A stretch of DNA of 64,000 nt from Alphaproteobacteria bacterium (GTDB lineage Bacteria > Pseudomonadota > Alphaproteobacteria > UBA11073): NCBI GenBank assembly GCA_965246945.1, contig CBDFFW010000001.1, forward strand, positions 1,064,311 through 1,128,310, read 5' to 3'. The notes under the pieces were generated by a model, which was not told the DNA's origin, did not search any database, and was given only the letters and a program-made list of their open reading frames with translations. Positions 1 through 28,876 of the stretch are shown piece after piece. Both the position numbers and the translations under genes were made by a program. The number at the start of each line of letters is the position of its first letter. The stretch's first letter is position 1.

Positions 1-1
1 G

Positions 2-277
2 TTTCTAGGTGTGGTTGCCTTGCCATTTGCCGGCGCTTCGCCAGCATCGGTGGCGGCACAATGGACTACCTCGGGTGCAATTGCTATTTTGGAAATTGCG
101 ATAGCGCTGGTGATGTATGTGATTATTTGGCTGTTCCAGGCCAATTTGATGGCTTTGGCTTATTATCATTTGGTGACAGCTAATGGCAGTACGGTTGATG
201 GCGAACCAGCCACTGCGCTAACCCCCATTCAGCGATTGGTAACAAAAAGCCAACGAATGGATAGTTTAGTGAATTAA
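2..277 (+). CDS. 3' end of a hypothetical membrane protein; the CDS is partial because it is open to the window start
   Basis: The ORF track gives 11..277, but the frame has no stop back to position 2, so the gene probably starts upstream of the window. There is a hydrophobic stretch (AIAILEIAIALVMYVIIWLF). I do not recognise the family. Confidence 0.3.
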   Translation, partial: FLGVVALPFAGASPASVAAQWTTSGAIAILEIAIALVMYVIIWLFQANLMALAYYHLVTANGSTVDGEPATALTPIQRLVTKSQRMDSLVN

Positions 278-325
278 ATATCCTTTCTCTTTGATCTTTG
301 CGGCCAATTTAGCTAATTAGGAGTC

Positions 326-805
326 GTGACTGAAGCTGCTTCTAATCAAACCGCAGGGATCAAGCGTCCGCTTTCCCCGCATTTACAGGTTTACCGTTGG
401 CAATGGTCCAATACCTTGTCGATTTTGCATCGGGCTACGGGCTGTGCTTTGGCGGTTGGGTTATTGGTGTTAACTGTGTGGCTGGTGATGGCGGCCATGG
501 GGCCAGCATCTTATACGGATTTTCAAAATTTCGCCGCGCAGCCGCTTAGCATTTTTTGCCTGGTCGGTTGGGGTTGGTGTCTTAGCTACCATTTGTTAAA
601 TGGTATTCGCCATTTGTTTTGGGATGCCGGTGCGGGTTATGAAATTAAAAATGCGGCGGCCAGTGGGTGGTCGGTGGTTTTTGGGTCATTTGTCTTAACC
701 GGTTTAATGTTGGCAGGTGCATATTATCAATACCAAATGGCACCTAAGCAGGTGAGTTATCAAAATGATACTGCACCTGTTGAACCCATGGGCGTGGAGG
801 AATAA
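326..805 (+). CDS. sdhC: Succinate dehydrogenase cytochrome b556 subunit SdhC
   Basis: GTG start preceded by AGGAG at 319-323. The N-terminus KRPLSPHLQVYRWQWSNTLSILHRATG is the conserved SdhC signature. Multiple TM helices. Directly upstream of sdhD and sdhA. Confidence 0.85.
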   Translation: MTEAASNQTAGIKRPLSPHLQVYRWQWSNTLSILHRATGCALAVGLLVLTVWLVMAAMGPASYTDFQNFAAQPLSIFCLVGWGWCLSYHLLNGIRHLFWDAGAGYEIKNAAASGWSVVFGSFVLTGLMLAGAYYQYQMAPKQVSYQNDTAPVEPMGVEE

Positions 806-807
806 TC

Positions 808-1194
808 ATGAAAACCGGTTCCCGCTTACAATCATCCCTTGGCCGTGTCCGTGGTTTAGGTAGTGCCAAATCTGGCGTACACCATTGGTGGGTGCAGCGT
901 TTAACTGCCATCGCTTTATTGCCGCTAAGCACTTGGTTAGTCAGTGCCATGATCATGCTAATCGGCCAACCTTATGACGTGTTTAAGTTGTGGATCAGCA
1001 CGCCCTGGTCGGCGGTGTTGCTGCTAGCGACCGTTTTTTTAATTTATTATCACACCTATTTGGGTTTGCAGGTAGTGCTGGAAGATTATTTAACCGGCCC
1101 GCGCTATTGGATTGTTTCGCTGGTGATTAAGGGCACCATTATGCTGTGCGGCGCACTCTCCCTTTTCTCTATTCTTAAAATTGCTCTAACTTAA
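808..1194 (+). CDS. sdhD: Succinate dehydrogenase hydrophobic membrane anchor SdhD
   Basis: 128 aa, three TM helices, the haem-ligand region HHWWVQRLTAIALLPL, and a start 3 nt after the sdhC stop. Confidence 0.8.
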   Translation: MKTGSRLQSSLGRVRGLGSAKSGVHHWWVQRLTAIALLPLSTWLVSAMIMLIGQPYDVFKLWISTPWSAVLLLATVFLIYYHTYLGLQVVLEDYLTGPRYWIVSLVIKGTIMLCGALSLFSILKIALT

Positions 1195-1196
1195 CC

Positions 1197-1649
1197 TTAA
1201 CCACCAATTTCAGGTGTTATAGTTTTGGGTGTTTTGGTAGTTTGCGTTGCGCGCGCCAAAGCTTGGGCAACATTATTTCTATTATCTTCATTGGAGGCAA
1301 CAATCACTTTTTGACCAGTTTTAGCAGCTTCTAAAACATTCTCTTCAATTCGCCAGCAAGCGTTGTTATTTATAACATTATAAGTTGCTGGTGTTGAAAT
1401 GGTTGCTAACCCTAAAAAATGGGTGATCGCTATAAATTTTAATCCTTTATTTCGATTTCCTAACCAGTCACCTATATCTCGATAATTATATTCAGCTCCA
1501 GAAAAAGGATCTAAACTTTTTTGAAAATAACCTTCGCGCGACTCTCTTACTAAACCTACCAGCTAAGCAGCAATTTCATCTTTGTCAGACTTTTCCGTAA
1601 AAGTACAACCATCAACATATTTTATTAATTCATTAATTTTAGAAGTCAT
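1197..1649 (-). pseudogene. Disrupted gene of unknown function in an AT-rich insert between sdhD and sdhA
   Basis: On the minus strand an ATG at 1649 opens a reading frame that hits an in-frame TAG at 1563-1565. The same frame then continues for 121 more codons to a TAA at 1197-1199. The product would be MTSKINELIKYVDGCTFTEKSDKDEIAA*LVGLVRESREGYFQKSLDPFSGAEYNYRDIGDWLGNRNKGLKFIAITHF...TPEIGG. Local GC is far below the flanking sdh genes. It is absent from the ORF track because of the internal stop. Confidence 0.45.
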
Positions 1650-1767
1650 TTATATGCCTTTGGTTAATTAAGCTCAATTTTTACATGTAACTATTATTAT
1701 ATCAAAATAAATTTCAAGCAATTCCTTTCTTGCTGTCTAAGCGACGCGCCGTTAATTAAGAGATAAT

Positions 1768-3558
1768 ATGGTTGTCGCATATCCCCTTACTTTTCACGAA
1801 TATGATGTCGTTGTGGTCGGCGCTGGCGGGGCCGGTTTGCGGGCAACATTTGGGATGGCCGAAAAAGGCTTGCGCACCGCGTGTTTAACCAAGGTTTTTC
1901 CGACCCGCTCGCATACGGTAGCCGCACAGGGCGGCATTTCTGCGGCGCTCGGCAATATGGGTGAAGATGATTGGCGCTTTCATATGTATGATACCGTCAA
2001 AGGGTCAGACTGGCTCGGCGACCAAGACGCAATTGAATATATGTGCCGCGAGGCCATTCCGGCGATTATCGAATTGGAACATTACGGCGTGCCGTTTTCA
2101 CGCACGGAAGATGGCAAAATTTACCAGCGCGCTTTCGGCGGGATGACCACGCATTATGGGCAGGGCACTGCTAAGCGCACCTGTGCGGCCGCCGACCGCA
2201 CCGGCCATGCGATGCTGCACACGCTGTATCAACAATCGCTCAAACACAAAGCCGAATTTTTTGTGGAATATTTCGCGCTTGATTTAATTATGGATGAGGA
2301 GGGTGCTTGTAAAGGTGTCCTTGCTTTGAATTTGGATGATGGCAGTTTACACGTTTTCCGCTCGCATCAAGTGGTGCTTGCTACTGGTGGTTATGGACGG
2401 GCTTATTTTTCCTGCACTTCGGCGCATACTTGTACGGGCGATGGCGGCGGTATGGTTGTGCGCGCTGGATTGCCATTGCAGGATATGGAATTCGTGCAAT
2501 TTCATCCAACCGGTATTTATGGCGCTGGCTGTTTGATTACCGAAGGCGTGCGTGGGGAAGGTGGTTATCTGACCAATTCTGAGGGCGAACGGTTTATGGA
2601 ACGTTATGCGCCATCGGCCAAAGATTTAGCCTCACGCGATGTGGTTTCCCGTGCGATGACGATTGAAATTCGCGAAGGGCGCGGTGTCGGCCCGCAGAAA
2701 GACCACATCTTTTTAAACTTACACCATTTGGATCCCGCCATTATTCACGAGCGTTTGCCAGGCATTGCGGAAAGTGCGCGGGTCTTTGCTGGTGTGGATG
2801 TGACCAAGGAGCCGATTCCAGTGCTGCCAACCGTGCATTATAATATGGGCGGAATTCCGACCAATGTGCATACGGAAGTATTAAACCCCACGGCGGAAAA
2901 TCCCCACCGGATAGTGCCAGGTTTGATGGCCATCGGCGAAGCGGCGTGTGTATCCGTGCATGGCGCGAACCGTTTGGGTTCAAATTCACTTTTAGATTTA
3001 GTGGTGTTTGGCCGCGCGGCGGCAATCCAGGCTGCGAAAACTGTAACGCCAGGCGCTACTCATAAATCTTTGCCGGCCACAGCTTATGATCATATTTTAG
3101 CACGTTTGGATAAAACGCGGAATGCGAATGGTCCGGTTAAAGTATCAGCCTTGCGCAATGATATGCAGCGCACCATGCAAAATAACTGTGCCGTTTTCCG
3201 CACAGGCGAGGTGTTGGAAAATGGTGTGCATGAAATTAATGCCATTTATGCCCGCCGGAACGACATCAAAATATCAGACCGTGGCTTAATCTGGAATTCA
3301 GATTTGGTTGAAGCATTAGAATTGGATAATTTATTAGCCAATGCCGTCACCACCTTGCATGCCGCCGTTAACCGCCAGGAATCACGCGGTGCCCATGCGC
3401 GCGAAGATTTTAGCGAGCGGGACGATAAACAATGGTTAAAACACACCATTATTTGGCTGGATGAAGCAGGCCAAAGCCGAATCGATTACCGGCCGGTTAT
3501 CCTGCATACGCTAACCAATGAGGTTGAGCCGGTGCCATTGAAGAAGCGGGTTTACTAG
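1768..3558 (+). CDS. sdhA: Succinate dehydrogenase flavoprotein subunit SdhA
   Basis: 596 aa. FAD motif [12 protein letters not shown], the covalent-FAD histidine context [10 protein letters not shown], and [15 protein letters not shown]. Full-length similarity to SdhA/FrdA. Confidence 0.95.
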
Positions 3559-3648
3559 TAAACATTTGAAATCAATACTTATGAGAAGCATACATATATT
3601 TGCAATTTGCTTCCTTGCATTTAAGCGAACGATATTTATAAGAGCCAA

Positions 3649-4881
3649 ATGTTCAAACGCACATTTGCGGCCATCGCTTTGGCTGCCACAGTTTTTCATG
3701 CATTACCTGCCAATGCGGGTGATCCATTTGATATCACCTTAACTGATACCACTTCGGGTGAGACGCGCAATTTTCATTTTAATAATGCTGAAGACGCGGT
3801 GAATACCTTTTCCAATACAAAATTGAGTCAATATCTCAGCACCTATAGCCCAACCCATGGGGTTACGGCTGCGGTAAGTTTACGGGGTTTGCCAGGCACT
3901 TTATCTTATGCGGCCGGTTCCAATACGCTGGTTTTAAATATTCCCAGCATCGGTCTCACCCAAAATTTCGTGGGCACTGGCGGGACGACAGCGGCCGCCC
4001 GTAATAATGCGCAAGACCAACTGGAAAATTTCTTTAAAGGGCAAAACGGCAGTGCGGTGCTGACCCAAATTTTAAGGGCACTGGCAGCCAAAACGCCGAT
4101 CGATCCAGTGGCAGGTAACCCCAATAGCCAATTATCATTGATGGGTGACCGTGATTTTAAATTGGGTACCAATTATTTGGAAGGTTTTAATTATAGCGCC
4201 AATAAAGATGATCGTAACCACTTTGAAACGGATGTCAGTGGCGGCCGGTTTAGCAATGATGTATCAGATCAAACCGTTATTACTGCCGCGCTGAACTATA
4301 ACCGCCGTTTGACCGATTCAAACGTGTCCCTGATTTTTGATCTGCCGTTTACTTATTCAGATAGTGAAGGGGCAAGCAGTTATGCGGCCTCATTTGGGAC
4401 AGGCGTGCGTGTGCCAATTATGCCAAACTGGGCGGTAACGCCATTGGTGCGGGTGGCCGGTGTTGGATCTGAAGATTTGGGCGCGGCAGCGGTTATTTAT
4501 TCAGGGTCGGTGACTAGTGATTTCCGCGTGCCGTTGGATAACAACAATGATTTCCAGTTAGGGAATATGATTGGTTATTATAAAACCAATGGTATTACCG
4601 TCGGCGATTACCATATTGATTACGATTTGGGCAATACCCGTTTGAAAAACGGCGTGGCCTTGGCCCACCGCTTTACGCCGGATAAAAATGCGTTAACGGG
4701 CCGGGTATTCTTTAACGATAGCCGTTTCTATGGTGATGATTTGTTTAATGATTATTACGAAGAAGTGGGCGTGTCTTTGTTGCAGCCATATACAGTAAGG
4801 ACGGGTCTAGAGCTAACCGGTTCTTATCTGTTTGCGGATAATTATAATGGTTGGCGCTTAAGCCTTGATTACAATTTCTGA
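3649..4881 (+). CDS. Outer-membrane beta-barrel protein, function unknown
   Basis: Signal peptide MFKRTFAAIALAATVFHALPANA. The composition is rich in Asn, Thr, Gly and Tyr with alternating hydrophobic residues. The C-terminus ...SLDYNF ends in Phe, the usual barrel signature. Confidence 0.5.
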   Translation: MFKRTFAAIALAATVFHALPANAGDPFDITLTDTTSGETRNFHFNNAEDAVNTFSNTKLSQYLSTYSPTHGVTAAVSLRGLPGTLSYAAGSNTLVLNIPSIGLTQNFVGTGGTTAAARNNAQDQLENFFKGQNGSAVLTQILRALAAKTPIDPVAGNPNSQLSLMGDRDFKLGTNYLEGFNYSANKDDRNHFETDVSGGRFSNDVSDQTVITAALNYNRRLTDSNVSLIFDLPFTYSDSEGASSYAASFGTGVRVPIMPNWAVTPLVRVAGVGSEDLGAAAVIYSGSVTSDFRVPLDNNNDFQLGNMIGYYKTNGITVGDYHIDYDLGNTRLKNGVALAHRFTPDKNALTGRVFFNDSRFYGDDLFNDYYEEVGVSLLQPYTVRTGLELTGSYLFADNYNGWRLSLDYNF

Positions 4882-4882
4882 T

Positions 4883-4910
4883 AAAAGCGGGCAATAGCCC
4901 GCTTTTTTAT
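4883..4910. terminator. Bidirectional rho-independent terminator
   Basis: aaaagcgggcaatagcccgcttttttat forms a GC stem with A-run and T-run flanks, between the convergent OMP gene and the glycosyltransferase gene. Confidence 0.7.
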
Positions 4911-6028
4911 TGGGTAATGCGGGTATAAAATTCGCCAATTTCACGGGCCACTTGCTCAGCTGAAAATGTATTCGCGACAAATGCCCGAGATTGTTGACCC
5001 ATTGCGGTGAGTATTTCGAGAGGCGTTGTAATCATCGTTTTAAGAGCGGCGATTAATTGCGCATGATTATCTAACCCCACGCGCCAACCTGTTTGGCCAG
5101 GTTGCACCACATCGCGGCAACCAGGGGCATCGGTGGTCAACACTGGCCGGCTGCAACTGGCAGCTTCCAGCAAACTTTTCGGCACGCCTTCACTGCGCGA
5201 AAGCAACACAGCAATATGCGCGCGCTGCCAAACCTGCCGCACATCACTAATTTTGCCCAGCCATTCAACACCTGGTAGTTTGGCCCAGGTTTGTAATTCA
5301 GCATCGGTGATGCTACTGGGGTTAGCAGGATCACTTTCGCCAGCTAGTATTAAATTTATATCGTGACCTTGTTCGCGGAGAATTTGTTGGGCTGCCACCA
5401 TTAAATGCGCACCTTTATGCCGCAGCATGCGGCCCGTATAGCCTAAAGTTAAGGGACCATTTGGCATTGGCAAAGCCGCGAAGTAATCGAGTTCAACGCC
5501 GGAGCCGCGAATAAGTGTCGCCGCGCCACGCTTTATCACACCGCGTTTTTCTAATTCGTGTTGATCGTCTTTATTTTGCAGCAACACATATGCGCCGTTT
5601 TGGCAGCAAAATAGTTTAAGGATAGGCACTAATGCCAAGCGAATGGTTTGCGCTTGCCAGCTATGGCCAAAGGCATAACCCAAACCCACAAATGCATAAA
5701 TGATATGGGGAATTTTAACAACTTGACGGGCCAACCCGCCCAGCATAATCGGTTTCAGGCCAACACAATGCAGGAGTATTGGTTCAATTTGCTGCACGAG
5801 TTGAATGAGTTGAGCGACCTCAGCACCCAAAGCAATCGGGCCAATTTTACACCGTTCCCAGTGCATGGGGTGCATATGAAATCCTTGGGCGCGAATGGCA
5901 TCACCATGTTGATCCACCTTGCAGGCCACATGCACTTCAAACCCAGCCGCGCGGGCAGCCTTGGCCATCGGCAAGCGATGGGACATAAACGACCAATCTT
6001 CGGCCACCACAAACAGCAAACGGCGCAT
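4907..6028 (-). CDS. Glycosyltransferase family 1 (GT4-like)
   Basis: 373 aa. The C-terminal GT-B motif region is ...LAGESD...SRSEGVPKSLLEAASCSRPVLTTDAPGCRDVV... Confidence 0.7.
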   Translation of the reverse strand: MRRLLFVVAEDWSFMSHRLPMAKAARAAGFEVHVACKVDQHGDAIRAQGFHMHPMHWERCKIGPIALGAEVAQLIQLVQQIEPILLHCVGLKPIMLGGLARQVVKIPHIIYAFVGLGYAFGHSWQAQTIRLALVPILKLFCCQNGAYVLLQNKDDQHELEKRGVIKRGAATLIRGSGVELDYFAALPMPNGPLTLGYTGRMLRHKGAHLMVAAQQILREQGHDINLILAGESDPANPSSITDAELQTWAKLPGVEWLGKISDVRQVWQRAHIAVLLSRSEGVPKSLLEAASCSRPVLTTDAPGCRDVVQPGQTGWRVGLDNHAQLIAALKTMITTPLEILTAMGQQSRAFVANTFSAEQVAREIGEFYTRITQ

Positions 6029-6343
6029 GGCATAACTATGCCAAGCCTGCGGCCAAGCTGCAAATTTAGTTATTAAGAATAAATTCCTTTACAATTATCA
6101 TGCGTTTTGTTATATAGACCAAGCGTGCAAACCGAAGACGCGGGTGCGTAGCGATGCTAGCTATGTTGCGCTTAATAACCTGCCGAGGGATGACGCCCAT
6201 CTGGCCCACACCGCCAGATGCACGCGCGCGTGAAATGTCTTCGCTCGTTTAAAGCGGTAACAGTGTTTCTTTTAACTTAAACAAATCCTGCTAAATTCTG
6301 CTTTTACAGCAATCATCGCCATGGCGATGTTAATATTACACAA

Positions 6344-6447
6344 CCTCATCTTGAGGAGCGCCATTGGCGCGTATCGAAGGATGTTTAATGAAGCCATATC
6401 GTTTAAGCAGCCTTCGATACGCAGCAAAACTGCTACTCAGGATGAGG
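6344..6447. repeat. Family A nested palindromic element, copy A1
   Basis: The outer inverted repeat is CCTCATCYTGAGKAG ... CTACTCAGGATGAGG and the inner one is GTATCGAAGGATG ... CAGCCTTCGATAC. The same architecture recurs five more times in the window. Confidence 0.85.
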
Positions 6448-10244: not shown

Positions 10245-10709
10245 ATGTTACTTGATCTGCACTTAATGCTCATTCAGAGCAAGTTTAATCGCGATATTAC
10301 CGATCAGTTGGTCGATGGTGCGGTAAAGGTGCTGGAGCGCCATAAGGCCAGTTACGAGCATTACTTGGTGCCAGGTGCGTTTGAAACACCTGCCGCCATT
10401 CAATTTGCGATCAAAGGCATGGAATTTGCCAAAGCCCGCCGCCGTTTCAGCGGTTATATTCCGCTCGCTTGCATTATTAAAGGCGAAACCAAACATTTTG
10501 ACTTAGTCGCCGACGAAGTTTTCCGCGCGATTAGCGATCTTTCATTGCGTTACACTATTGCGATTGGCAATGGCATTTTAACAACTGATACTTATGACCA
10601 GGCGCTGGAGCGTGCGAATACCCAAGGCCGTAACTGGGGCGGTTTAGCCGCTGAAACCTGCATCGATATGATTGAGCTGAAAAGTAAATTTGCATTGCTG
10701 CGTGGTTAA
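10245..10709 (+). CDS. ribH: 6,7-dimethyl-8-ribityllumazine synthase, copy 1
   Basis: 154 aa lumazine-synthase fold (…GAFETPAAIQFAIKG…IPLACIIKGETKHFDLVADE…). Confidence 0.8.
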   Translation: MLLDLHLMLIQSKFNRDITDQLVDGAVKVLERHKASYEHYLVPGAFETPAAIQFAIKGMEFAKARRRFSGYIPLACIIKGETKHFDLVADEVFRAISDLSLRYTIAIGNGILTTDTYDQALERANTQGRNWGGLAAETCIDMIELKSKFALLRG

Positions 10710-10712
10710 TTA

Positions 10713-11177
10713 ATGTTGGGTGATTTGCATTTCATGATTATTCAAAGTGAAGCGAATCGTGAAATAACAGATAAACTAGCCGCTGGTGCGATTACCAAGA
10801 TTGAAGAAAATCACGGCAGCTATGAAATTTATTACGTTTCGCAATCACTAGAATTGGGTTTAGCCATCCAATATGCCATTAAAGGCTTGGAATTTACCAA
10901 AGCACGCCGCGCATTTTCCGGTTACATTCCACTGGCTTGCCTAGTTAAAGAGCAAACCACAAATTTTGATTTAATAGCGACTGAGGCGCTGCGTGGAATT
11001 ATTGATTTGGGCATGCGCTATACTATCGCGCTAGGTAATGGCTTATTGATTTGCGATACGGTTGAACAAGCACAAAAGCAAAGTAATTCTAATGCGCAAA
11101 ATTATGGGGCAATTGCCGCCAGCCAGTGTTTCCGAGCGATTGAATTAAAAAGCCAATTTTCACTGCTGCGTAAATAA
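10713..11177 (+). CDS. ribH: 6,7-dimethyl-8-ribityllumazine synthase, tandem paralogue (copy 2)
   Basis: Also 154 aa, roughly 50% identical to copy 1 over the full length, starting 3 nt after its stop. Confidence 0.8.
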   Translation: MLGDLHFMIIQSEANREITDKLAAGAITKIEENHGSYEIYYVSQSLELGLAIQYAIKGLEFTKARRAFSGYIPLACLVKEQTTNFDLIATEALRGIIDLGMRYTIALGNGLLICDTVEQAQKQSNSNAQNYGAIAASQCFRAIELKSQFSLLRK

Positions 11178-12476
11178 CCAAGTATTGGCATCGGCGGCGA
11201 TTTGTTCGCCGGTTTGCATATTTTTAACTTCATCACCAGCCCCATCAGCGCCCAAAAACCACACATACGGAATACTTTTTTTATCGGCATAACCCAATTG
11301 TTTCTGCACCTTTTGCGCTGCGTGATAGACTTCAACATTTAATCCGCGGGCACGAAAATCTTGGGCAAGTGCTTGGGCGCGCGGGCGGTCTTCCTCATTT
11401 AACAATGCGATTAAAATTTGGGTTGGAGAGGCAGGTATTGGTTGAATATGGCCTTCCTTAAGCAGCTTGCTGAATAGCCGCGTTAAACCGAAGGAAATGC
11501 CAACGCCTGGTAAATGCTTGTTGATATAAGAACCTGCCAAGTCATCATACCGGCCGCCGGCAATCACGGTGCCGAAATCGGGATAGCTGGTAAATTTTCC
11601 TTCATAGACGGTGCCGGTGTAATAATCCAAACCGCGCGCGATGCCGAGATTGGCGGCAACCGCACCGGCCGGTAAATCTTTCAAGTAAGACATCACAAAA
11701 CTAAGTTCTTCCATACCTTGCGCCAGCAATGCATGGGAAACGCCAAGGGCACTCACCTGTTGCGCAAAACCATTATCACTGGTTTTAATTTGCGCCAAGG
11801 CCAAGGCTTTGTTGGCAGCTTCAGCGTGCATACCCAAAGTTTGCAATTCCGCATGCACCATATCGGCGCTGGCTTTATCAAGTTTATCCAGCGCGCGAAT
11901 GGCGGCCATGGGTTCGGCCACATCCAAACCGCGCAAAAAGCCTTCGAGAATTTTGCGGTTGTTAAGATGGATTTGCACATCGCTAATTTTAAGCGCGGTT
12001 AGCAAATCAAACATGATCAACGGCATTTCCCCATCAAAATGCAGCGGTAGTTGATCAACTGCAATCACATCAATATCGCATTGGTAAAACTCACGGAAAC
12101 GCCCTTCTTGCGGGCGTTCACCGCGCCAAACGCGTTGAAGCTGATAACGTTTAAATGGAAAGCTGAGATTATTAAAATGCTGCGCCACATAACGCGCCAT
12201 CGGTACGGTTAAATCAAAATGCAGGGCCAGGCGCGCTTCCTTGGCTTCATCCGGATCGGTATGCAAGCGTTGCAAGACATATAATTCTTTGTCAGTTGCG
12301 CCTTTAGCATCAATCACTTCCAAAGCTTCCACACTTGGCGTTTCCAAGTTAATAAAGCCATAACTTTCAAACACGCGGCGAATGGTATCAAGCCATTGCA
12401 ATTCCACCCGCCGAATTTCCGGACTCCATTCAGGGAAACCACTGATTGGCTGGGGTTTGTGAATTACTTTGCTCAT
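11160..12476 (-). CDS. hisS: Histidine--tRNA ligase
   Basis: 438 aa. Class II motifs including RGLDYYTGTVYE, and a C-terminal anticodon-binding domain (...VKNMQTGEQ). Its 3' end overlaps the ribH copy 2 stop by 18 nt, convergently. Confidence 0.85.
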   Translation of the reverse strand: MSKVIHKPQPISGFPEWSPEIRRVELQWLDTIRRVFESYGFINLETPSVEALEVIDAKGATDKELYVLQRLHTDPDEAKEARLALHFDLTVPMARYVAQHFNNLSFPFKRYQLQRVWRGERPQEGRFREFYQCDIDVIAVDQLPLHFDGEMPLIMFDLLTALKISDVQIHLNNRKILEGFLRGLDVAEPMAAIRALDKLDKASADMVHAELQTLGMHAEAANKALALAQIKTSDNGFAQQVSALGVSHALLAQGMEELSFVMSYLKDLPAGAVAANLGIARGLDYYTGTVYEGKFTSYPDFGTVIAGGRYDDLAGSYINKHLPGVGISFGLTRLFSKLLKEGHIQPIPASPTQILIALLNEEDRPRAQALAQDFRARGLNVEVYHAAQKVQKQLGYADKKSIPYVWFLGADGAGDEVKNMQTGEQIAADANTWLFTQQ

Positions 12477-12508: not shown

Positions 12509-12766
12509 CTATTTTTCTAATAATTGTTGATTATATTTTGCCCAGCCTTGGCGGATAATTTCTAAATGTTCTTCCTTGATGTAACTTGGATAGCGGTAGT
12601 TGGGATAGGTGCCATTGCTATCGATAATTTTTTTTACTTCCGCATTCATTAAATTTTTTAAGATTTCAGGATCCGATAACAGATTGGATTTTGGCCCATT
12701 CATCTGGTTGGAAGATGGTGGTTGTGCCATCGCTTGATAATAAGGCAATTTGTTGAAAATTACCAT
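12509..12766 (-). CDS. Small hypothetical ORF overlapping the 3' end of the zeta-like gene
   Basis: The 85 aa ORF overlaps the upstream gene by 100 nt in another frame. An internal Met at 12649 would give a 46 aa product that does not overlap. No family recognised. Confidence 0.2.
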   Translation of the reverse strand: MVIFNKLPYYQAMAQPPSSNQMNGPKSNLLSDPEILKNLMNAEVKKIIDSNGTYPNYRYPSYIKEEHLEIIRQGWAKYNQQLLEK

Positions 12767-13250
12767 TATTCATATAAATGATCGTTTGGTTGCATAGCGG
12801 CATGAAAAGCTTGAATAAATAATGTAAGCCACGCTGATAACGGCGGCGGATATCTACTTCCGGCACATTATGGCCGCCTTTTAAAGCGCGGGTTTCAACG
12901 CGTTCAATCGCTAATTCGATATTTGGCACCCAAAGATAAATAAGTTGAATAATATATCCATTGGCTTTGGCTGTTTTTATTTTTTTAGCCAATGTCTGCG
13001 ATGATAAGGTTGTTTCGCTAACGAAACTTTGTTTCTGCGCAATCAACTCATCCATGCGTTTCAGCATGGTTTTGCCAGCGGTAATTGCGGCAGCCGCAGG
13101 GTCAAAAGGCGAAAGCCCTTTGGCGATTTCATCCGTATTTAAAAATAACGATGTGTTAAAAGCGGTTGGCAGTAAACCATAAGCTGCGGTTGTTTTACCC
13201 GCACCGTTGGGCCCAGCAATAATTGTCCAAACGGGTGATTGATCTATCAT
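12666..13250 (-). CDS. Zeta-toxin / AAA_33-like P-loop kinase
   Basis: Walker A IIAGPNGAGKTTAA at the N-terminus, Walker-B-like SFVSETTLS, and a size and layout typical of the zeta-toxin (UNAG kinase) family. No antitoxin-sized ORF lies upstream. Confidence 0.65.
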   Translation of the reverse strand: MIDQSPVWTIIAGPNGAGKTTAAYGLLPTAFNTSLFLNTDEIAKGLSPFDPAAAAITAGKTMLKRMDELIAQKQSFVSETTLSSQTLAKKIKTAKANGYIIQLIYLWVPNIELAIERVETRALKGGHNVPEVDIRRRYQRGLHYLFKLFMPLCNQTIIYMNNGNFQQIALLSSDGTTTIFQPDEWAKIQSVIGS

Positions 13251-13453: not shown

Positions 13454-15295
13454 TTATTCTTCGTCGGTTTCAGCCGTTTCACTGTCTTGGTTAGTTGTTT
13501 GGGCTTTGCGCAAGGCAGCACCTAAAATGCTACCTAAAGATGCGCCGGATTCGGATGAACCAAACTCGGCAATCGCCGCTTTTTCTTCGGCGAATTCATG
13601 CGCTTTGATTGATAGTTCGATGCGTTTGGCTGATTTCATCACTGCGATGATTTTGGCATCAACCTTATCGCCCACGGCAAAACGGTTGGTGCGCTGCTCT
13701 GCGCGGTCACGTGACAATTCAGCCCGTTTGATGATGCCGTAGATTTTGTCGTTCACCAACACTTCGATATTATCATCCCGCACGGCAGTTACCGTACCTG
13801 TTACCACATCACTTTTTTTCAGGGAGTTAATCGCGGTCATGGCCGGATCTTCACCCGTTAATTGCTTGATGCCAAGGGCAACACGTTCGCGGTCGGTATC
13901 GACATCCAAAACGCGGGCGGTGACTTGTGCACCTTTGGCGTAAGCTTTAACGGCTTCTTCACCCGTTTGATCCCATGACAAATCATTGATGTTGATCATG
14001 CCATCCACACCACCTGGCAGGGCGATGAACATCCCCAGTTCAGTAATGTTAACGAGCTCGCCGGTGTAATCCGAACCAGCAGGGTGGGTTTTGGCAAACT
14101 CAACCCATGGGTTATCGCTAAGTTGTTTGAGACCCAGGGAAATGCGGCGTTTTTCACGGTCGACTTCCAAAATTTGCGCTTCAATGGTTTGGCCTTCTTG
14201 CACAAATTTGGCTGGATCATTCTGCAATTTGCGATTCCAGGTCATTTCCGCGACATGGATCATACCTTCCATGCCATCGCCAAAAGTAACATAGGCGCCC
14301 AAATCGGTCACGCCGGTTACTTCACCTTTGATTTTTTGACCGACCTGTAATTGGTCATCTTTGCCTTCCCATGGATCGGCTTGCAATTGCTTCATGCCCA
14401 AGGAAATCCGTTGGCTTTCGCGGTTGAAACGAATCACCACGACTTCCACTTGCTGGCCAATGGTCAATGCATCGGATGGGTGGTTGAGACGCTGCCAAGA
14501 AATATCGGTCATATGCAATAAACCGTCAACGCCGCCCAGATCAATAAACGCGCCGTAATCGGTGATGTTTTTCACAGTACCGGTGAGTTGTTGGCCTTCA
14601 CGCAGGTCTGAAATCAATTCAGCCCGCGCATCCGCACGGGTTTCTTCAAGCACAGCGCGACGAGAGACAACGATATTGCCGCGCGCACGATCCATTTTCA
14701 AAAGCACGAAAGGCTGCGCTACATTCATCAATGGATTGGTATCTTTTAATGGACGGATATCTAATTGCGAGCCAGGCAAGAACGCAATCGCGCCGTTAAG
14801 ATCAACGGTAAAGCCGCCTTTGACTTTGCTGAAAATGGTGCCCATAACATGTTTGCCAGTAATATGGGCTTCTTCCAATTCCACCCAGATTTCTTCGCGG
14901 CGCGCCCGTTCGCGGGATAGCACCGCTTCGCCTTCTTTGCCTTCAATTTTGTCGACATAGACATCGACCAGGTCGCCAATCTGCACGGTAGTGGCATCGT
15001 CGCCCGCACCGAATTCACGGCGTGGTACGCGGCCTTCAGCTTTCATGCCAACATCGACCATTACGAAATCATGGGTGATATCGACAACAAGACCTTTAAC
15101 CACTGAGCCTTCAATCGAAGGGCCGCTGCCAAAATTTTCATTTAGCAGATTAGTAAATTTTTCTTTTTCTGCAGGAACGTAACCAGGTAATGGGAAATCC
15201 AAGCCATGGACATATTTACGGGTTTGGCCTTTGGCCACTTGAGATGCGCGCGGCATATTGGGGTGTCTTTCGTTTGGTTGTGTCATTCCGGACAA
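13454..15295 (-). CDS. rpsA: 30S ribosomal protein S1
   Basis: 613 aa with six S1 domains. Both ends of the ORF run into family B repeats, so the true start is probably the internal Met (MTQPNE..., near 15286) or later. Confidence 0.9.
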   Translation of the reverse strand: MSGMTQPNERHPNMPRASQVAKGQTRKYVHGLDFPLPGYVPAEKEKFTNLLNENFGSGPSIEGSVVKGLVVDITHDFVMVDVGMKAEGRVPRREFGAGDDATTVQIGDLVDVYVDKIEGKEGEAVLSRERARREEIWVELEEAHITGKHVMGTIFSKVKGGFTVDLNGAIAFLPGSQLDIRPLKDTNPLMNVAQPFVLLKMDRARGNIVVSRRAVLEETRADARAELISDLREGQQLTGTVKNITDYGAFIDLGGVDGLLHMTDISWQRLNHPSDALTIGQQVEVVVIRFNRESQRISLGMKQLQADPWEGKDDQLQVGQKIKGEVTGVTDLGAYVTFGDGMEGMIHVAEMTWNRKLQNDPAKFVQEGQTIEAQILEVDREKRRISLGLKQLSDNPWVEFAKTHPAGSDYTGELVNITELGMFIALPGGVDGMININDLSWDQTGEEAVKAYAKGAQVTARVLDVDTDRERVALGIKQLTGEDPAMTAINSLKKSDVVTGTVTAVRDDNIEVLVNDKIYGIIKRAELSRDRAEQRTNRFAVGDKVDAKIIAVMKSAKRIELSIKAHEFAEEKAAIAEFGSSESGASLGSILGAALRKAQTTNQDSETAETDEE

Positions 15296-16178: not shown

Positions 16179-18359
16179 TTAATTACCACCCATTGGTTGT
16201 AGTGTGGCTGCACTATTCCCTTTAGTGGCCAGTGGTGATGCTACAGGAGCTCCGACAGGCAGCTGGCCGCCAACTGTAGTTGCCGCATCACGAGAGTGCA
16301 TCTTATGAGGGCTTCCCATTGATGGATTGGTAACATTGGTACCGGCTGGCGATAAAGTTGGAGGTGCACCTTGTGCGGCCAGCCCAGCAAAGTCAAAACC
16401 TCCGGCAGCTTGAGCCGCACGCGCGCTAAGGAATGTTTTATCCGCGTCGGACAAGGCTGCCGGATCGATAGGAGGCGGATTGGCGAAAGTGATTGAAGGG
16501 TCAGTTGGATCGGTAGCAAAAGTATTATCAGTAGGTGCAACTGCAGCATTTGGATTGCTGGCCGTCGTTGCACCTAATGGTTGGCCTGTAAGTTGGGCGT
16601 AGGCTTGCTGAGTTTCAGCATCCAGGGTTTTACCATGGGCGTGCAATGTTTCAGCAAAGAATTTGAAGTCTTGGATTGATTTTGGACTGTTGTTTTGGGG
16701 CTTAACATTATAAACGTCTAAATCAAATGCCAATGCGGTTTGCACGGCCATCATACGCGTACGGTCATCTGCATTGCTGACGCTAACTTGCTGTTGGCCA
16801 ATGGTTAATTGAGAGGTCGCTGTCACATCGAAACGCACCGAACCATCAGCAAGCTGAGTGGCCGTGGTATAGTTATCTTGTAGAACAGCAGCGTAAAACG
16901 CGGGGGCATTTGGAATTTGTAAATTCGGAAGTGCAGCTATTACTGCGTTTTCATCTAATGCCGTGCCTGATCCAGTTGCTGGTGCAGCTGAGGCTGAACC
17001 GCCACCGCCAATAGTTACGCCTCCCGAAGGAGGCGCTGAGCCACCTCCTTGAACATTTGCACCGCCACTACCACCCAAATCATTGCCAGGAGCATTGCTG
17101 TTTATAAAATCATTTGGTTTAAAACGCGCAGTTGCACCAGCCCAATAGTCAACATCCAGTTTTGGATCAGTTAGATAGTTGAATTCATAGCCAAATTTAT
17201 CGGTTAATTCAGCGTTTAAAGCAGCAAGACGACGAAAAAATTCGGCTTTTTTAATTTCTCCAGCTTCTAATTCAGCATATAGATCAAGTACTTTAACATT
17301 ATGAGCATGCTGCGCTTTTAAATCTTGAATTATTTTTTCGCTCGCTATTTGGCCTGCAACACTGTGAAGAATTGCAAGCGTATCTTCATTTAAATTAAGC
17401 TCTTTAGCGATATCAGTGTAATTTAAATGGGTTTTTTCTAATTCATTTTCAGCAATATGATCTAAAAATTTCTGTAACTCTATTGAATAAGAAGATCCAC
17501 TATCAATTTCTTTTTGTATCAAACCGATAAAAGTTAGACCTTCATAATATGATAGCCAGTTATAACCACCTACATCATATGAAAGATCAATAAATGCTTT
17601 TAAATCTTCTGCAGTTGTATAAGTTTTTTCGCCAAAAACATTTGGACGTACCATCAACATTGCACTTTCATCGGGTACGCTATCGAATTGGCCACCTTTA
17701 ATTTTTAATACTTCTTCCCCTTCTTCATTCGGCCAACGCAACATAGTCCCCAAAATAGGTAATGCATCTGTTTGGTCAGCATAATAGCGCGCTAATCGGG
17801 CAGGAGCGCGATTTCCATCTTCAACAGGCGCACCTAAATCGCCAACTTCTAAGGCGTTACCTTTAATGTTTTCTGCCCCAACATCAGCTTCAATATTTTG
17901 ATGCGCGGTTTTAACTAAGTCTAAATATAAGCTACTGTTGCCATTTCTAAATTCTTCACCTACAGCCCCATAACTATTTAGGATAAAACCTGTTTCAGGA
18001 TGGTACATACGCAAGGCTGCACCAACGACTTCCGGTTCTTTAGCATTGATATCACCGCGAATAACAACATAAGCGTAATGCTTATTGTCGTAATCAGACT
18101 CGCCAACCAAATTGTTTTTGGTTAGTTGCCATTCAATATCAGCAGGCCAGGTCTCAAAATCAGGTTGAGCGATTAAAAAGTCACGTGCGCCACGTGCTAA
18201 GTTACCAAGCAAACTTGGATCTTCATCAAATTCAGCATCTTTTTTACCCTGCTTATTTTTGGGTAATTCATGTAAGCGAACTACGATTAATTTTTCACCG
18301 TTTGCTTCAACTTCTTGGGCGTAAGGCGGTAATTTTTTAAAAGGAATAGAAAAAGCCAT
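16179..18359 (-). CDS. Large hypothetical protein (726 aa) with a Gly/Ser linker and an Ala/Pro/Thr-rich tail
   Basis: No signal peptide and no recognisable catalytic motif. The N-terminal two thirds is encoded by strongly AT-rich DNA (about 17.2-18.36 kb). It contains GGSGGANVQGGGSAPPSGGVTIGGGGSASAAP. The tail is low-complexity (…NPNAAVAPTDNTFATDPTDPSITFANPPPIDPAAL…). Confidence 0.55.
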   Translation of the reverse strand: MAFSIPFKKLPPYAQEVEANGEKLIVVRLHELPKNKQGKKDAEFDEDPSLLGNLARGARDFLIAQPDFETWPADIEWQLTKNNLVGESDYDNKHYAYVVIRGDINAKEPEVVGAALRMYHPETGFILNSYGAVGEEFRNGNSSLYLDLVKTAHQNIEADVGAENIKGNALEVGDLGAPVEDGNRAPARLARYYADQTDALPILGTMLRWPNEEGEEVLKIKGGQFDSVPDESAMLMVRPNVFGEKTYTTAEDLKAFIDLSYDVGGYNWLSYYEGLTFIGLIQKEIDSGSSYSIELQKFLDHIAENELEKTHLNYTDIAKELNLNEDTLAILHSVAGQIASEKIIQDLKAQHAHNVKVLDLYAELEAGEIKKAEFFRRLAALNAELTDKFGYEFNYLTDPKLDVDYWAGATARFKPNDFINSNAPGNDLGGSGGANVQGGGSAPPSGGVTIGGGGSASAAPATGSGTALDENAVIAALPNLQIPNAPAFYAAVLQDNYTTATQLADGSVRFDVTATSQLTIGQQQVSVSNADDRTRMMAVQTALAFDLDVYNVKPQNNSPKSIQDFKFFAETLHAHGKTLDAETQQAYAQLTGQPLGATTASNPNAAVAPTDNTFATDPTDPSITFANPPPIDPAALSDADKTFLSARAAQAAGGFDFAGLAAQGAPPTLSPAGTNVTNPSMGSPHKMHSRDAATTVGGQLPVGAPVASPLATKGNSAATLQPMGGN

Positions 18360-28195: not shown

Positions 28196-28876
28196 TTATG
28201 GTGTTGCAACCGGAGCTGGGGTTAACACTGGCGCTTTGCCAACATCACGAGAATCAAATGCCGCTTCTGAAAAGCCTTCTTCGGTATATTCTTTTGCATA
28301 TTTGGTAGTAACAGCTGCAATCGCCTTTCTAACGGCTACTAAATTATCTGAATTGCCTAAAAACAAACCAATTCTATTCATCGTTGCATCGGCTTGTTCA
28401 ACTTTATCAGGCGATACATCATAATCATTTGTAAAATTAACATATGGTTCGACGTTTTTAAGTCCGTAGGTTAAATGACCGCTTTTAGTATCAACGTCGA
28501 CTGAAAAAGTTTTATTTCCAAATTCTACATTTGCAGTATTTCTTGAAGGTCTATAAATATTACCGCTAACTTCGACTTTAAAATTTTTACCACCAAGAAT
28601 TTTGACAATAACCTGCTTACCAAATGTTTTGCCTTTTATCAGCATAGTTTGCTGGCCTACTAGGCTGGCGACAGTTTGGACACATTTGTGATAACCCATT
28701 ACTGTTACCGGTGCGACGGTTATGGGTTGGCTTTTCTCTAACTGTTGTGTTTTACCACACCCGCTACCAAAAGCAGCAAATACAGTCATAGTAGCGGCAG
28801 CGCCAAATGCAGCTAAATATCTTGGAGTAAATTTTTTCATCATTTTTTCTGTGAGCAATTCGATTATTGCATGCAA
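28196..28876 (-). CDS. Hypothetical lipoprotein
   Basis: Signal peptide with a lipobox (…AAFGSGC GK). AT-rich coding sequence. No family recognised. Confidence 0.4.
   Translation of the reverse strand: MHAIIELLTEKMMKKFTPRYLAAFGAAATMTVFAAFGSGCGKTQQLEKSQPITVAPVTVMGYHKCVQTVASLVGQQTMLIKGKTFGKQVIVKILGGKNFKVEVSGNIYRPSRNTANVEFGNKTFSVDVDTKSGHLTYGLKNVEPYVNFTNDYDVSPDKVEQADATMNRIGLFLGNSDNLVAVRKAIAAVTTKYAKEYTEEGFSEAAFDSRDVGKAPVLTPAPVATP

Follow-up and report, generated by a model that had tools for sequence, protein, structure and literature searches.

A probable pseudogene of a phage-associated protein family between sdhD and sdhA

In the 64-kb stretch of DNA analyzed here (the window), the succinate dehydrogenase genes sdhD and sdhA are separated by AT-rich DNA that probably carries a phage accessory gene, acquired by horizontal transfer and inactivated recently (Table 1). 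The original prediction of a decaying horizontally acquired gene in the sdh cluster is supported by the foreign composition of this DNA, by an empty site at the same junction in the nearest sampled relative (locus L184), and by a score of 49.9 bits for the read-through protein against the HMM of a protein family found in phage-like contigs. Pseudogenes from failed horizontal transfers are a general phenomenon in bacterial genomes. The present case resembles them in its foreign composition, the lack of orthologs in relatives, the phage-related family, and the single early disabling mutation. It differs from them in nothing essential, and only the location inside sdhCDA is unusual. Such events are well known, and no new mechanism or system is involved. 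The locus offers a clean, datable transfer of a single gene into a core respiratory cluster, together with an empty-site comparator, and illustrates that, in a small (~1.8 Mb) genome, an additional 573 untranslated bases can be accommodated at the sdhD-sdhA junction. The family itself is a more interesting by-product than the insertion. What appeared to be an ORFan pseudogene is now placed in a family of at least 504 clusters, and this family, which is common in uncultured phages, merits definition.

Table 1. Features of the sdh locus and the inserted DNA (positions in the window).
Feature	Position	Strand	Basis
sdhC, succinate dehydrogenase cytochrome b subunit	326..805	+	ORF; Pfam Sdh_cyt, E 4e-31
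sdhD, membrane anchor	808..1194	+	Pfam Sdh_cyt, E 8e-16
AT-rich sdhD-sdhA spacer, taken as insert, 573 nt	1195..1767	.	GC 33.9%; 13-nt spacer in nearest relative L184
Stop-disrupted gene, 150 codons, ATG 1649-1647, TAA 1199-1197	1197..1649	-	translation; phmmer; family HMM
C-terminal tail, 27 codons, outside family envelope, host-like GC (about 45-53%)	1200..1280	-	40-nt GC profile
Family signature motif, here DPFSGAEYNYRDIGDWLGNRN (consensus DPFDGxEHxYxELGGWIGDQG)	1449..1511	-	two alignments
In-frame TAG, codon 29 (plus strand CTA)	1563..1565	-	alignment; Glu column in most family members
AAGG, Shine-Dalgarno-like, 7 nt upstream of ATG 1649	1657..1660	-	read from sequence
GTTAATTAAG, exact 10-nt direct repeat, first copy	1663..1672	+	
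TGATATAAT, perfect extended -10 consensus, ~47 nt upstream of ATG; candidate promoter of inserted gene	1696..1704	-	
GTTAATTAAG, second copy, directly before sdhA ribosome-binding region	1751..1760	+	
sdhA, flavoprotein subunit, intact	1768..3558	+	Pfam FAD_binding_2, E 8e-123; Succ_DH_flav_C, E 7e-47

The sdhD-sdhA junction

The end of sdhD and the start of sdhA were placed correctly in the original prediction, as judged by the ORF listing and the Pfam matches. The window does not contain a contiguous sdhCDAB cluster with short spacers; only sdhC, sdhD, and sdhA are present, and the gap between the latter two is 573 nt as compared to a median of 9 nt in related loci. Comparison loci were collected with SdhD as the query, 80 from species-representative genomes and 80 from metagenomes; 151 of them contain both genes and were used to measure the gap. 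The earlier statement that only a few bases normally lie between the two genes is roughly right for the median locus, and the full range among these 151 loci extends from -7 to 193 nt. Scans of the species-representative genomes and metagenomes yielded no SdhD of more than 61% identity. The nearest sampled relative, L184 (SdhD 63% identical; GC 49.8%), was found by a later protein search. In L184, the TAA of sdhD is followed by 13 nt and the ATG of sdhA, and 57 of the first 60 SdhA residues are identical to those in the window. Because this junction is an empty site, the insert is lineage-specific; neither L184 nor the 151 loci has a counterpart of it, and no relic of the inserted gene was found in any of the 151. 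No relative from the same genus was found in the genome, metagenome, or protein searches, and a search of the literature on sdhD-sdhA insertions found nothing relevant.

The insert is placed precisely. The C-terminus of SdhD (...FSILKIALT*) is native, as it aligns end to end with those of 44 relatives and matches that of L184 exactly. With the N-terminus of SdhA being native as well, no coding sequence has been damaged by the insert.

Several other observations were made at this locus. No sdhB homolog was found anywhere in the 64-kb window, which suggests that complex II was already expressed from separated loci in this lineage. In relatives, sdhB directly follows sdhA; an example is locus L185, which has an sdhD-sdhA gap of 48 nt followed by sdhA and sdhB. 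The ORF after sdhA in the window (3649-4881, plus strand) encodes 410 aa with a signal-peptide-like N-terminus and has no Pfam match. Residues ~86-94 of SdhD (1062-1090) read EDYLTGPRY in the window and EDYLSKGRQ in L184 (sdhD at 6001-6387), and EDY(V/I)H is found at the same site in nearly all other relatives in the alignment. According to this alignment, a conserved SdhD His has been lost in a lineage-specific manner in the window genome and L184. Finally, a second long gap (460 nt) with a minus-strand ORF, seen in L186, was rejected as a parallel case, as the apparent gap corresponds to the N-terminal part of sdhA in a shifted frame, in an assembly of 70% GC. At 3406-6175 of this 1.46-Mb contig, sdhA is called as two pieces (349 and 40 aa) and sdhB likewise (122 and 150 aa), and the sdhA start was missed through a frame problem. 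This fragmentation likely results from assembly indels, or alternatively from real decay.

Composition of the spacer

The claim that the spacer is much lower in GC than its surroundings was confirmed. Its GC content is 33.9%, whereas the 573-nt windows across the 64 kb have a mean of 47.2% (sd 4.6%), and only six of 1269 such windows are as low. In 200-nt windows, the values are 29-38% in the spacer and 47-58% in the flanks. The difference is also apparent in GC3, which is 20.7% in the inserted ORF and 47-53% in sdhC, sdhD, and sdhA. These patterns support a foreign origin of the inserted DNA. Moreover, the GC3 value indicates no amelioration toward the host, which suggests a short residence and provides no sign of long-term maintenance.

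The interrupted reading frame

As had been predicted, translation of the minus strand from 1649 to 1197 gives a frame of 150 codons with a single internal stop. The remaining two minus-strand frames of the spacer contain many stops. Frames of at least 150 codons with at most one stop arose in 31 of 5000 dinucleotide shuffles of the spacer (0.6%), and stop-free runs of at least 121 codons in 46 of 5000 (0.9%). The TAG is an ordinary stop in this genome and terminates nine of the 47 long ORFs in the window. The next in-frame start downstream of it is a GTG at 1307, such that 85 codons lack a start and the conserved core cannot be made. In the HMM alignment, the TAG aligns without gaps to a family consensus 'e', and the simplest history of codon 29 would be a mutation of GAG (Glu) to TAG, with this direction being putative.

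The frame is open up to ATG 1649. The choice of this codon as the start is based on the open frame, the ribosome-binding site, the absence of a later start codon, and the architecture of the family, and not on sequence homology. The alignment of the 28 codons before the TAG is compatible with the family, although their gain in HMM score was matched by 62 of 200 shuffled N-termini. In addition, the N-terminus is ~15 residues shorter than in any aligned family member. The upstream TGATATAAT has three matches in the window as compared to 3.6 expected by chance, and at this chance rate it can only suggest a promoter. At the other end of the gene, the HMM envelope stops at residue 123 of the read-through protein. 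The 27-codon tail that follows could be former spacer DNA that is now read through, and AF2 predicts a helix and then a disordered end for it.

An unannotated protein family

The original prediction held that the product matches nothing recognizable, but sensitive searches indicated otherwise. By its profile score, the inserted gene belongs, as a divergent member, to an unannotated family seen in phage-like contigs. Comparison of the read-through protein with Pfam, NCBIfam, and PHROGs gave no match, and neither did a word-indexed homolog search with the single sequence. A partial PADLOC match to a type III methyltransferase model (13.5 bits, E 0.005) was judged spurious and does not place the protein among defense proteins. 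The family was found only by an exhaustive phmmer search of 1.84 billion representatives, for which the query was the 121 codons after the TAG. Among the 18 proteins with E values of 1e-3 or lower, 16 are family members (E 8e-6 to 1e-3; about 100-360 residues), and these share the core DPFDGxEHxYxELGGWIGDQ..A..FM.L....L.TP. The other two were discarded. The best match, P0001 (E 1e-16), is a protein of 3544 aa in which 34 identical coiled-coil repeats score 5 bits each, and P0009 (1190 aa) is a long multi-stretch repeat protein.

A profile search extended the family to at least 504 clusters, none of which has a Pfam domain or a name beyond 'hypothetical protein'. The family has a size class of ~140 residues (135-150) and is without a Pfam, PHROG, or NCBIfam model. 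The family HMM, which was built from 113 members with the window sequence left out, gave 49.9 bits (E 1.5e-17, one target) for the read-through protein and 45.1 bits for its C-terminal 121 aa. The tblastn matches of one member, P0007, in many sdh loci were attributed to chance; these fall on an SdhA motif resembling GDWLGDQGRALQFM and have E values of 0.013 or higher.

The window copy shares its length class and core motif with family members such as gp238 of Microbacterium phage Magritte (WNN95189.1) and the metagenomic members P0003-P0134. The order of elements also appears to be the same, namely an N-terminal helix, strands, DPFDGxEHxYxELGGWIGDQ, two helices, and TP. In contrast to these members, it is found within a core operon of a bacterium, has a stop in its frame, and differs at 11 of 25 conserved positions. 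The 14 strongly conserved positions that it keeps compare with at least 19 of 25 in each of the 113 others, a comparison set that consists of the best-scoring members and is biased accordingly. All four invariant residues of the core motif (G, G, W, and P) are kept. Among the near-invariant residues of DPFDGxEH...GDQG, the changes are D to S, H to Y, D to N, Q to R, and G to N, and the replaced D, H, and Q are 99-100% conserved in the other members. The CxCGxC...H loop is also missing, as in 10 of the 114 aligned sequences with the window copy included. Overall, the identity of the window copy to any family member does not exceed about 35%.

The predicted fold of the family is of high confidence (pLDDT 95) and has no convincing structural match, and Foldseek found nothing in PDB or BFVD. 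The helix-plus-strand region N-terminal to the motif is present in every family member. The C-terminal 121 residues of the window protein are predicted to adopt the family core fold with a pLDDT of 80. The model resembles winged-helix DNA-binding domains (ArsR, MarR, and the N-terminal domain of O-methyltransferases), but membership among these was rejected, given Z scores below 6, identities of 5-10%, coverage of half of the model, and no sequence match.

Phage context of the family

All contexts of family members examined are phage-like. In contig L083, the member is near genes for a tail tube, a tail terminator, a tape measure, and a portal-type DUF4055 protein. Contigs L081 and L082 (34-35 kb) have RNA ligase, Sequestin, and Lar with the member, and contigs L085 and L086 have DNA ligase and RNA ligase among arrays of small ORFs. 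In two larger contigs, the accompanying genes are HNH and Pam3_gp59 (L181, 210 kb) or Ku, RecT, and PD-(D/E)XK (L182, 134 kb). In addition, 14 viral contigs in IMG/VR contain a family member. The gene for Magritte gp238, annotated as a 'hypothetical protein', is located between genes that encode an RNA ligase and a DNA-binding protein. Across the contexts examined, no conserved partner gene was found beside the family members; apparent conserved neighbors were antisense ORFs that overlap the family gene itself and were rejected. In three unrelated phage contexts, which include Microbacterium phage Magritte, an RNA ligase gene is only a few genes away from the family member (L081, 705-1259; L085, 14924-15595; L183, 2912-3487). 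The family may be linked to RNA repair modules, or this association may be a coincidence.

The window copy itself has no phage or prophage context, and the closest gene of a phage type encodes an integrase at a distance of 60 kb. Searches of phage and plasmid collections found no DNA-level match of the insert, and tblastn with the window protein found no match in cultured phages. We infer a phage donor solely from the context of the family, in which case the gene would derive from the set of small early or accessory genes carried by a tailed phage.

Route of insertion

The observations above are consistent with a horizontal acquisition of a single gene, on the strand opposite to sdh, that would have inserted precisely between the stop codon of sdhD and the start codon of sdhA once this lineage had diverged from the nearest sampled relative. 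Illegitimate recombination would be the default route. Alternatively, the insert may be a MITE or IS remnant with a passenger ORF and terminal inverted repeats at 1177-1196 and 1662-1681, but the chance of this is very remote. The 20-nt inverted pair in question (I1, 16 of 20 positions complementary) closely brackets the ORF, and the exact 10-nt direct repeat is present on the right side. However, the left arm of I1 lies within conserved sdhD codons (KIALT*), and since the same residues are found in the insert-free L184, this arm is host sequence and I1 was rejected as a terminal inverted repeat. Moreover, I1 is among 15 inverted pairs of like quality in the same 1 kb, there is no transposase ORF, and the lack of DNA-level matches in the phage and plasmid collections is accompanied by the lack of a second copy of the inserted ORF in the 64-kb window. 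The direct repeats also do not span the whole insert, and no target duplication flanks it. The two copies of GTTAATTAAG are the only ones in the 64 kb; they are 88 nt apart and bracket 78 nt between the ribosome-binding regions of the inserted gene and sdhA.

The gene would have brought along a ribosome-binding site and probably a promoter, and would be moron-like in that sense. Hendrix and colleagues reportedly described morons as extra single genes with their own promoters and deviant GC between conserved genes of lambdoid prophages. By definition, morons are found within phage genomes and have a promoter and a terminator around one gene. The window gene shares with them the single-gene content, the independent or opposite transcription with a candidate promoter and ribosome-binding site, the sharp GC drop relative to the flanks, and the precise seat between two intact genes. 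Unlike morons, it is located in a chromosomal operon with no surrounding prophage, has no terminator after it, and is apparently dead.

Present state of the inserted gene

The mutation of GAG to TAG at codon 29 would halt translation after 28 residues. With this stop and no later start, the gene is best regarded as a young pseudogene without a protein function of its own, and its loss of function is putative to this extent. The inactivation appears recent because the other 121 codons are still open. Taken together, the single lesion, the otherwise open frame, and the unameliorated composition suggest that both the arrival and the inactivation were recent.

A lone stop may also be explained by a sequencing error or a strain polymorphism, either of which would look the same. 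Under this explanation, the TAG is an artifact of base calling or assembly, or a polymorphism in the sequenced clone, and the organism has kept an intact, domesticated phage gene, with a putative role in superinfection exclusion or another phage-related process and its own promoter between sdhD and sdhA. Such a scenario is unlikely but deserves consideration. There is one lesion in 150 codons, a run of 121 open codons is seen in only 0.9% of the shuffles, the promoter and ribosome-binding site are plausible, the predicted fold of the core is still that of the family, and all four invariant residues (G, G, W, and P) are present. However, the replacement of 11 of 25 strongly conserved positions, including the D, H, and Q, fits relaxed constraint, and GC3 remains unameliorated. 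Furthermore, the source is a 1.79-Mb contig from an apparently finished-quality assembly, and in most sequencing technologies substitution errors are less likely than indel errors. There is a slim chance that a captured phage accessory gene is intact in the population, or that it is kept for an outward promoter that modulates respiratory complex II. If so, the locus would be a handle on the function of the phage family.

Transcription of sdhA

If the inserted gene is a pseudogene, its only lasting effect on the host would be that sdhD and sdhA are now 573 nt apart, with untranslated AT-rich DNA between them. Expression of sdhA may then depend on read-through, or a fortuitous promoter within this DNA may drive it. 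The original prediction that the insert forces sdhA to use its own promoter is not supported as stated, although it describes a possible outcome. No intrinsic terminator was predicted on the plus strand of 1195-1767, and thus nothing was found that would block read-through by intrinsic termination. The plus strand of the spacer has more C than G (C/G 1.34; 1.6 in the core). Untranslated RNA with C above G has rut-type features that favor Rho-dependent termination, and Rho-dependent polarity over the 573 untranslated nt is a plausible, putative consequence of the insert.

These features also bear on the hypothesis that the insert serves as regulatory DNA or RNA, in which its AT-rich 5' region would provide a new promoter for sdhA and its outward-facing extended -10 promoter would drive an antisense transcript into sdhD and sdhC, and both would thereby uncouple and modulate the expression of the membrane and flavoprotein subunits. 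This hypothesis may coexist with the pseudogene interpretation, and we consider it quite improbable. In its favor, the TGATATAAT site at 1704-1696 is oriented toward the inserted gene and, farther on, toward sdhD, and the minus strand has no terminator-like site between 1197 and sdhD. A promoter-like site (TTTACA-17-CAAAAT) is present at 1680-1708, which is 60 nt upstream of sdhA, and Rho polarity on the untranslated plus strand would create a need for such a local promoter. However, promoter-like sites in 1-4000 occur at the chance rate (seven found as compared to 7.2 expected), TGNTATAAT is no more common in the window than expected by chance, and none of the relatives examined carries the insert. 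At the RNA level, neither strand of the spacer has a structure that is stable or unusual relative to shuffles (z -0.8 to +1.9). A search of 1100-1900 against Rfam 15 found no family, with one sub-threshold match to a eukaryotic lncRNA (E 0.14) that was attributed to chance.

Other features of the window

Other low-GC regions are present in the window. The region at 60959-63049 (minus strand; 34-38% GC) contains a DNA methylase gene (N6_N4_Mtase; 60959-62146) beside a tyrosine recombinase gene of the phage integrase family (62237-63049) and probably represents a further mobile element that has integrated. The other strongest low-GC island (17100-17800; 31-34%) is inside an ORF of 726 aa at 16179-18359 (minus strand), which has no Pfam match. 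An ORF of 226 aa at 28196-28876 (minus strand; 35-38% GC) likewise has no Pfam match. In addition, a zeta-toxin/AAA_33-type kinase gene (12666-13250, minus strand) is located between hisS (11160-12476) and rpsA (13454-15295). Finally, two DMRL synthase (ribH) paralogs at 10245-10709 and 10713-11177 (plus strand) are arranged in tandem directly after ribBA.
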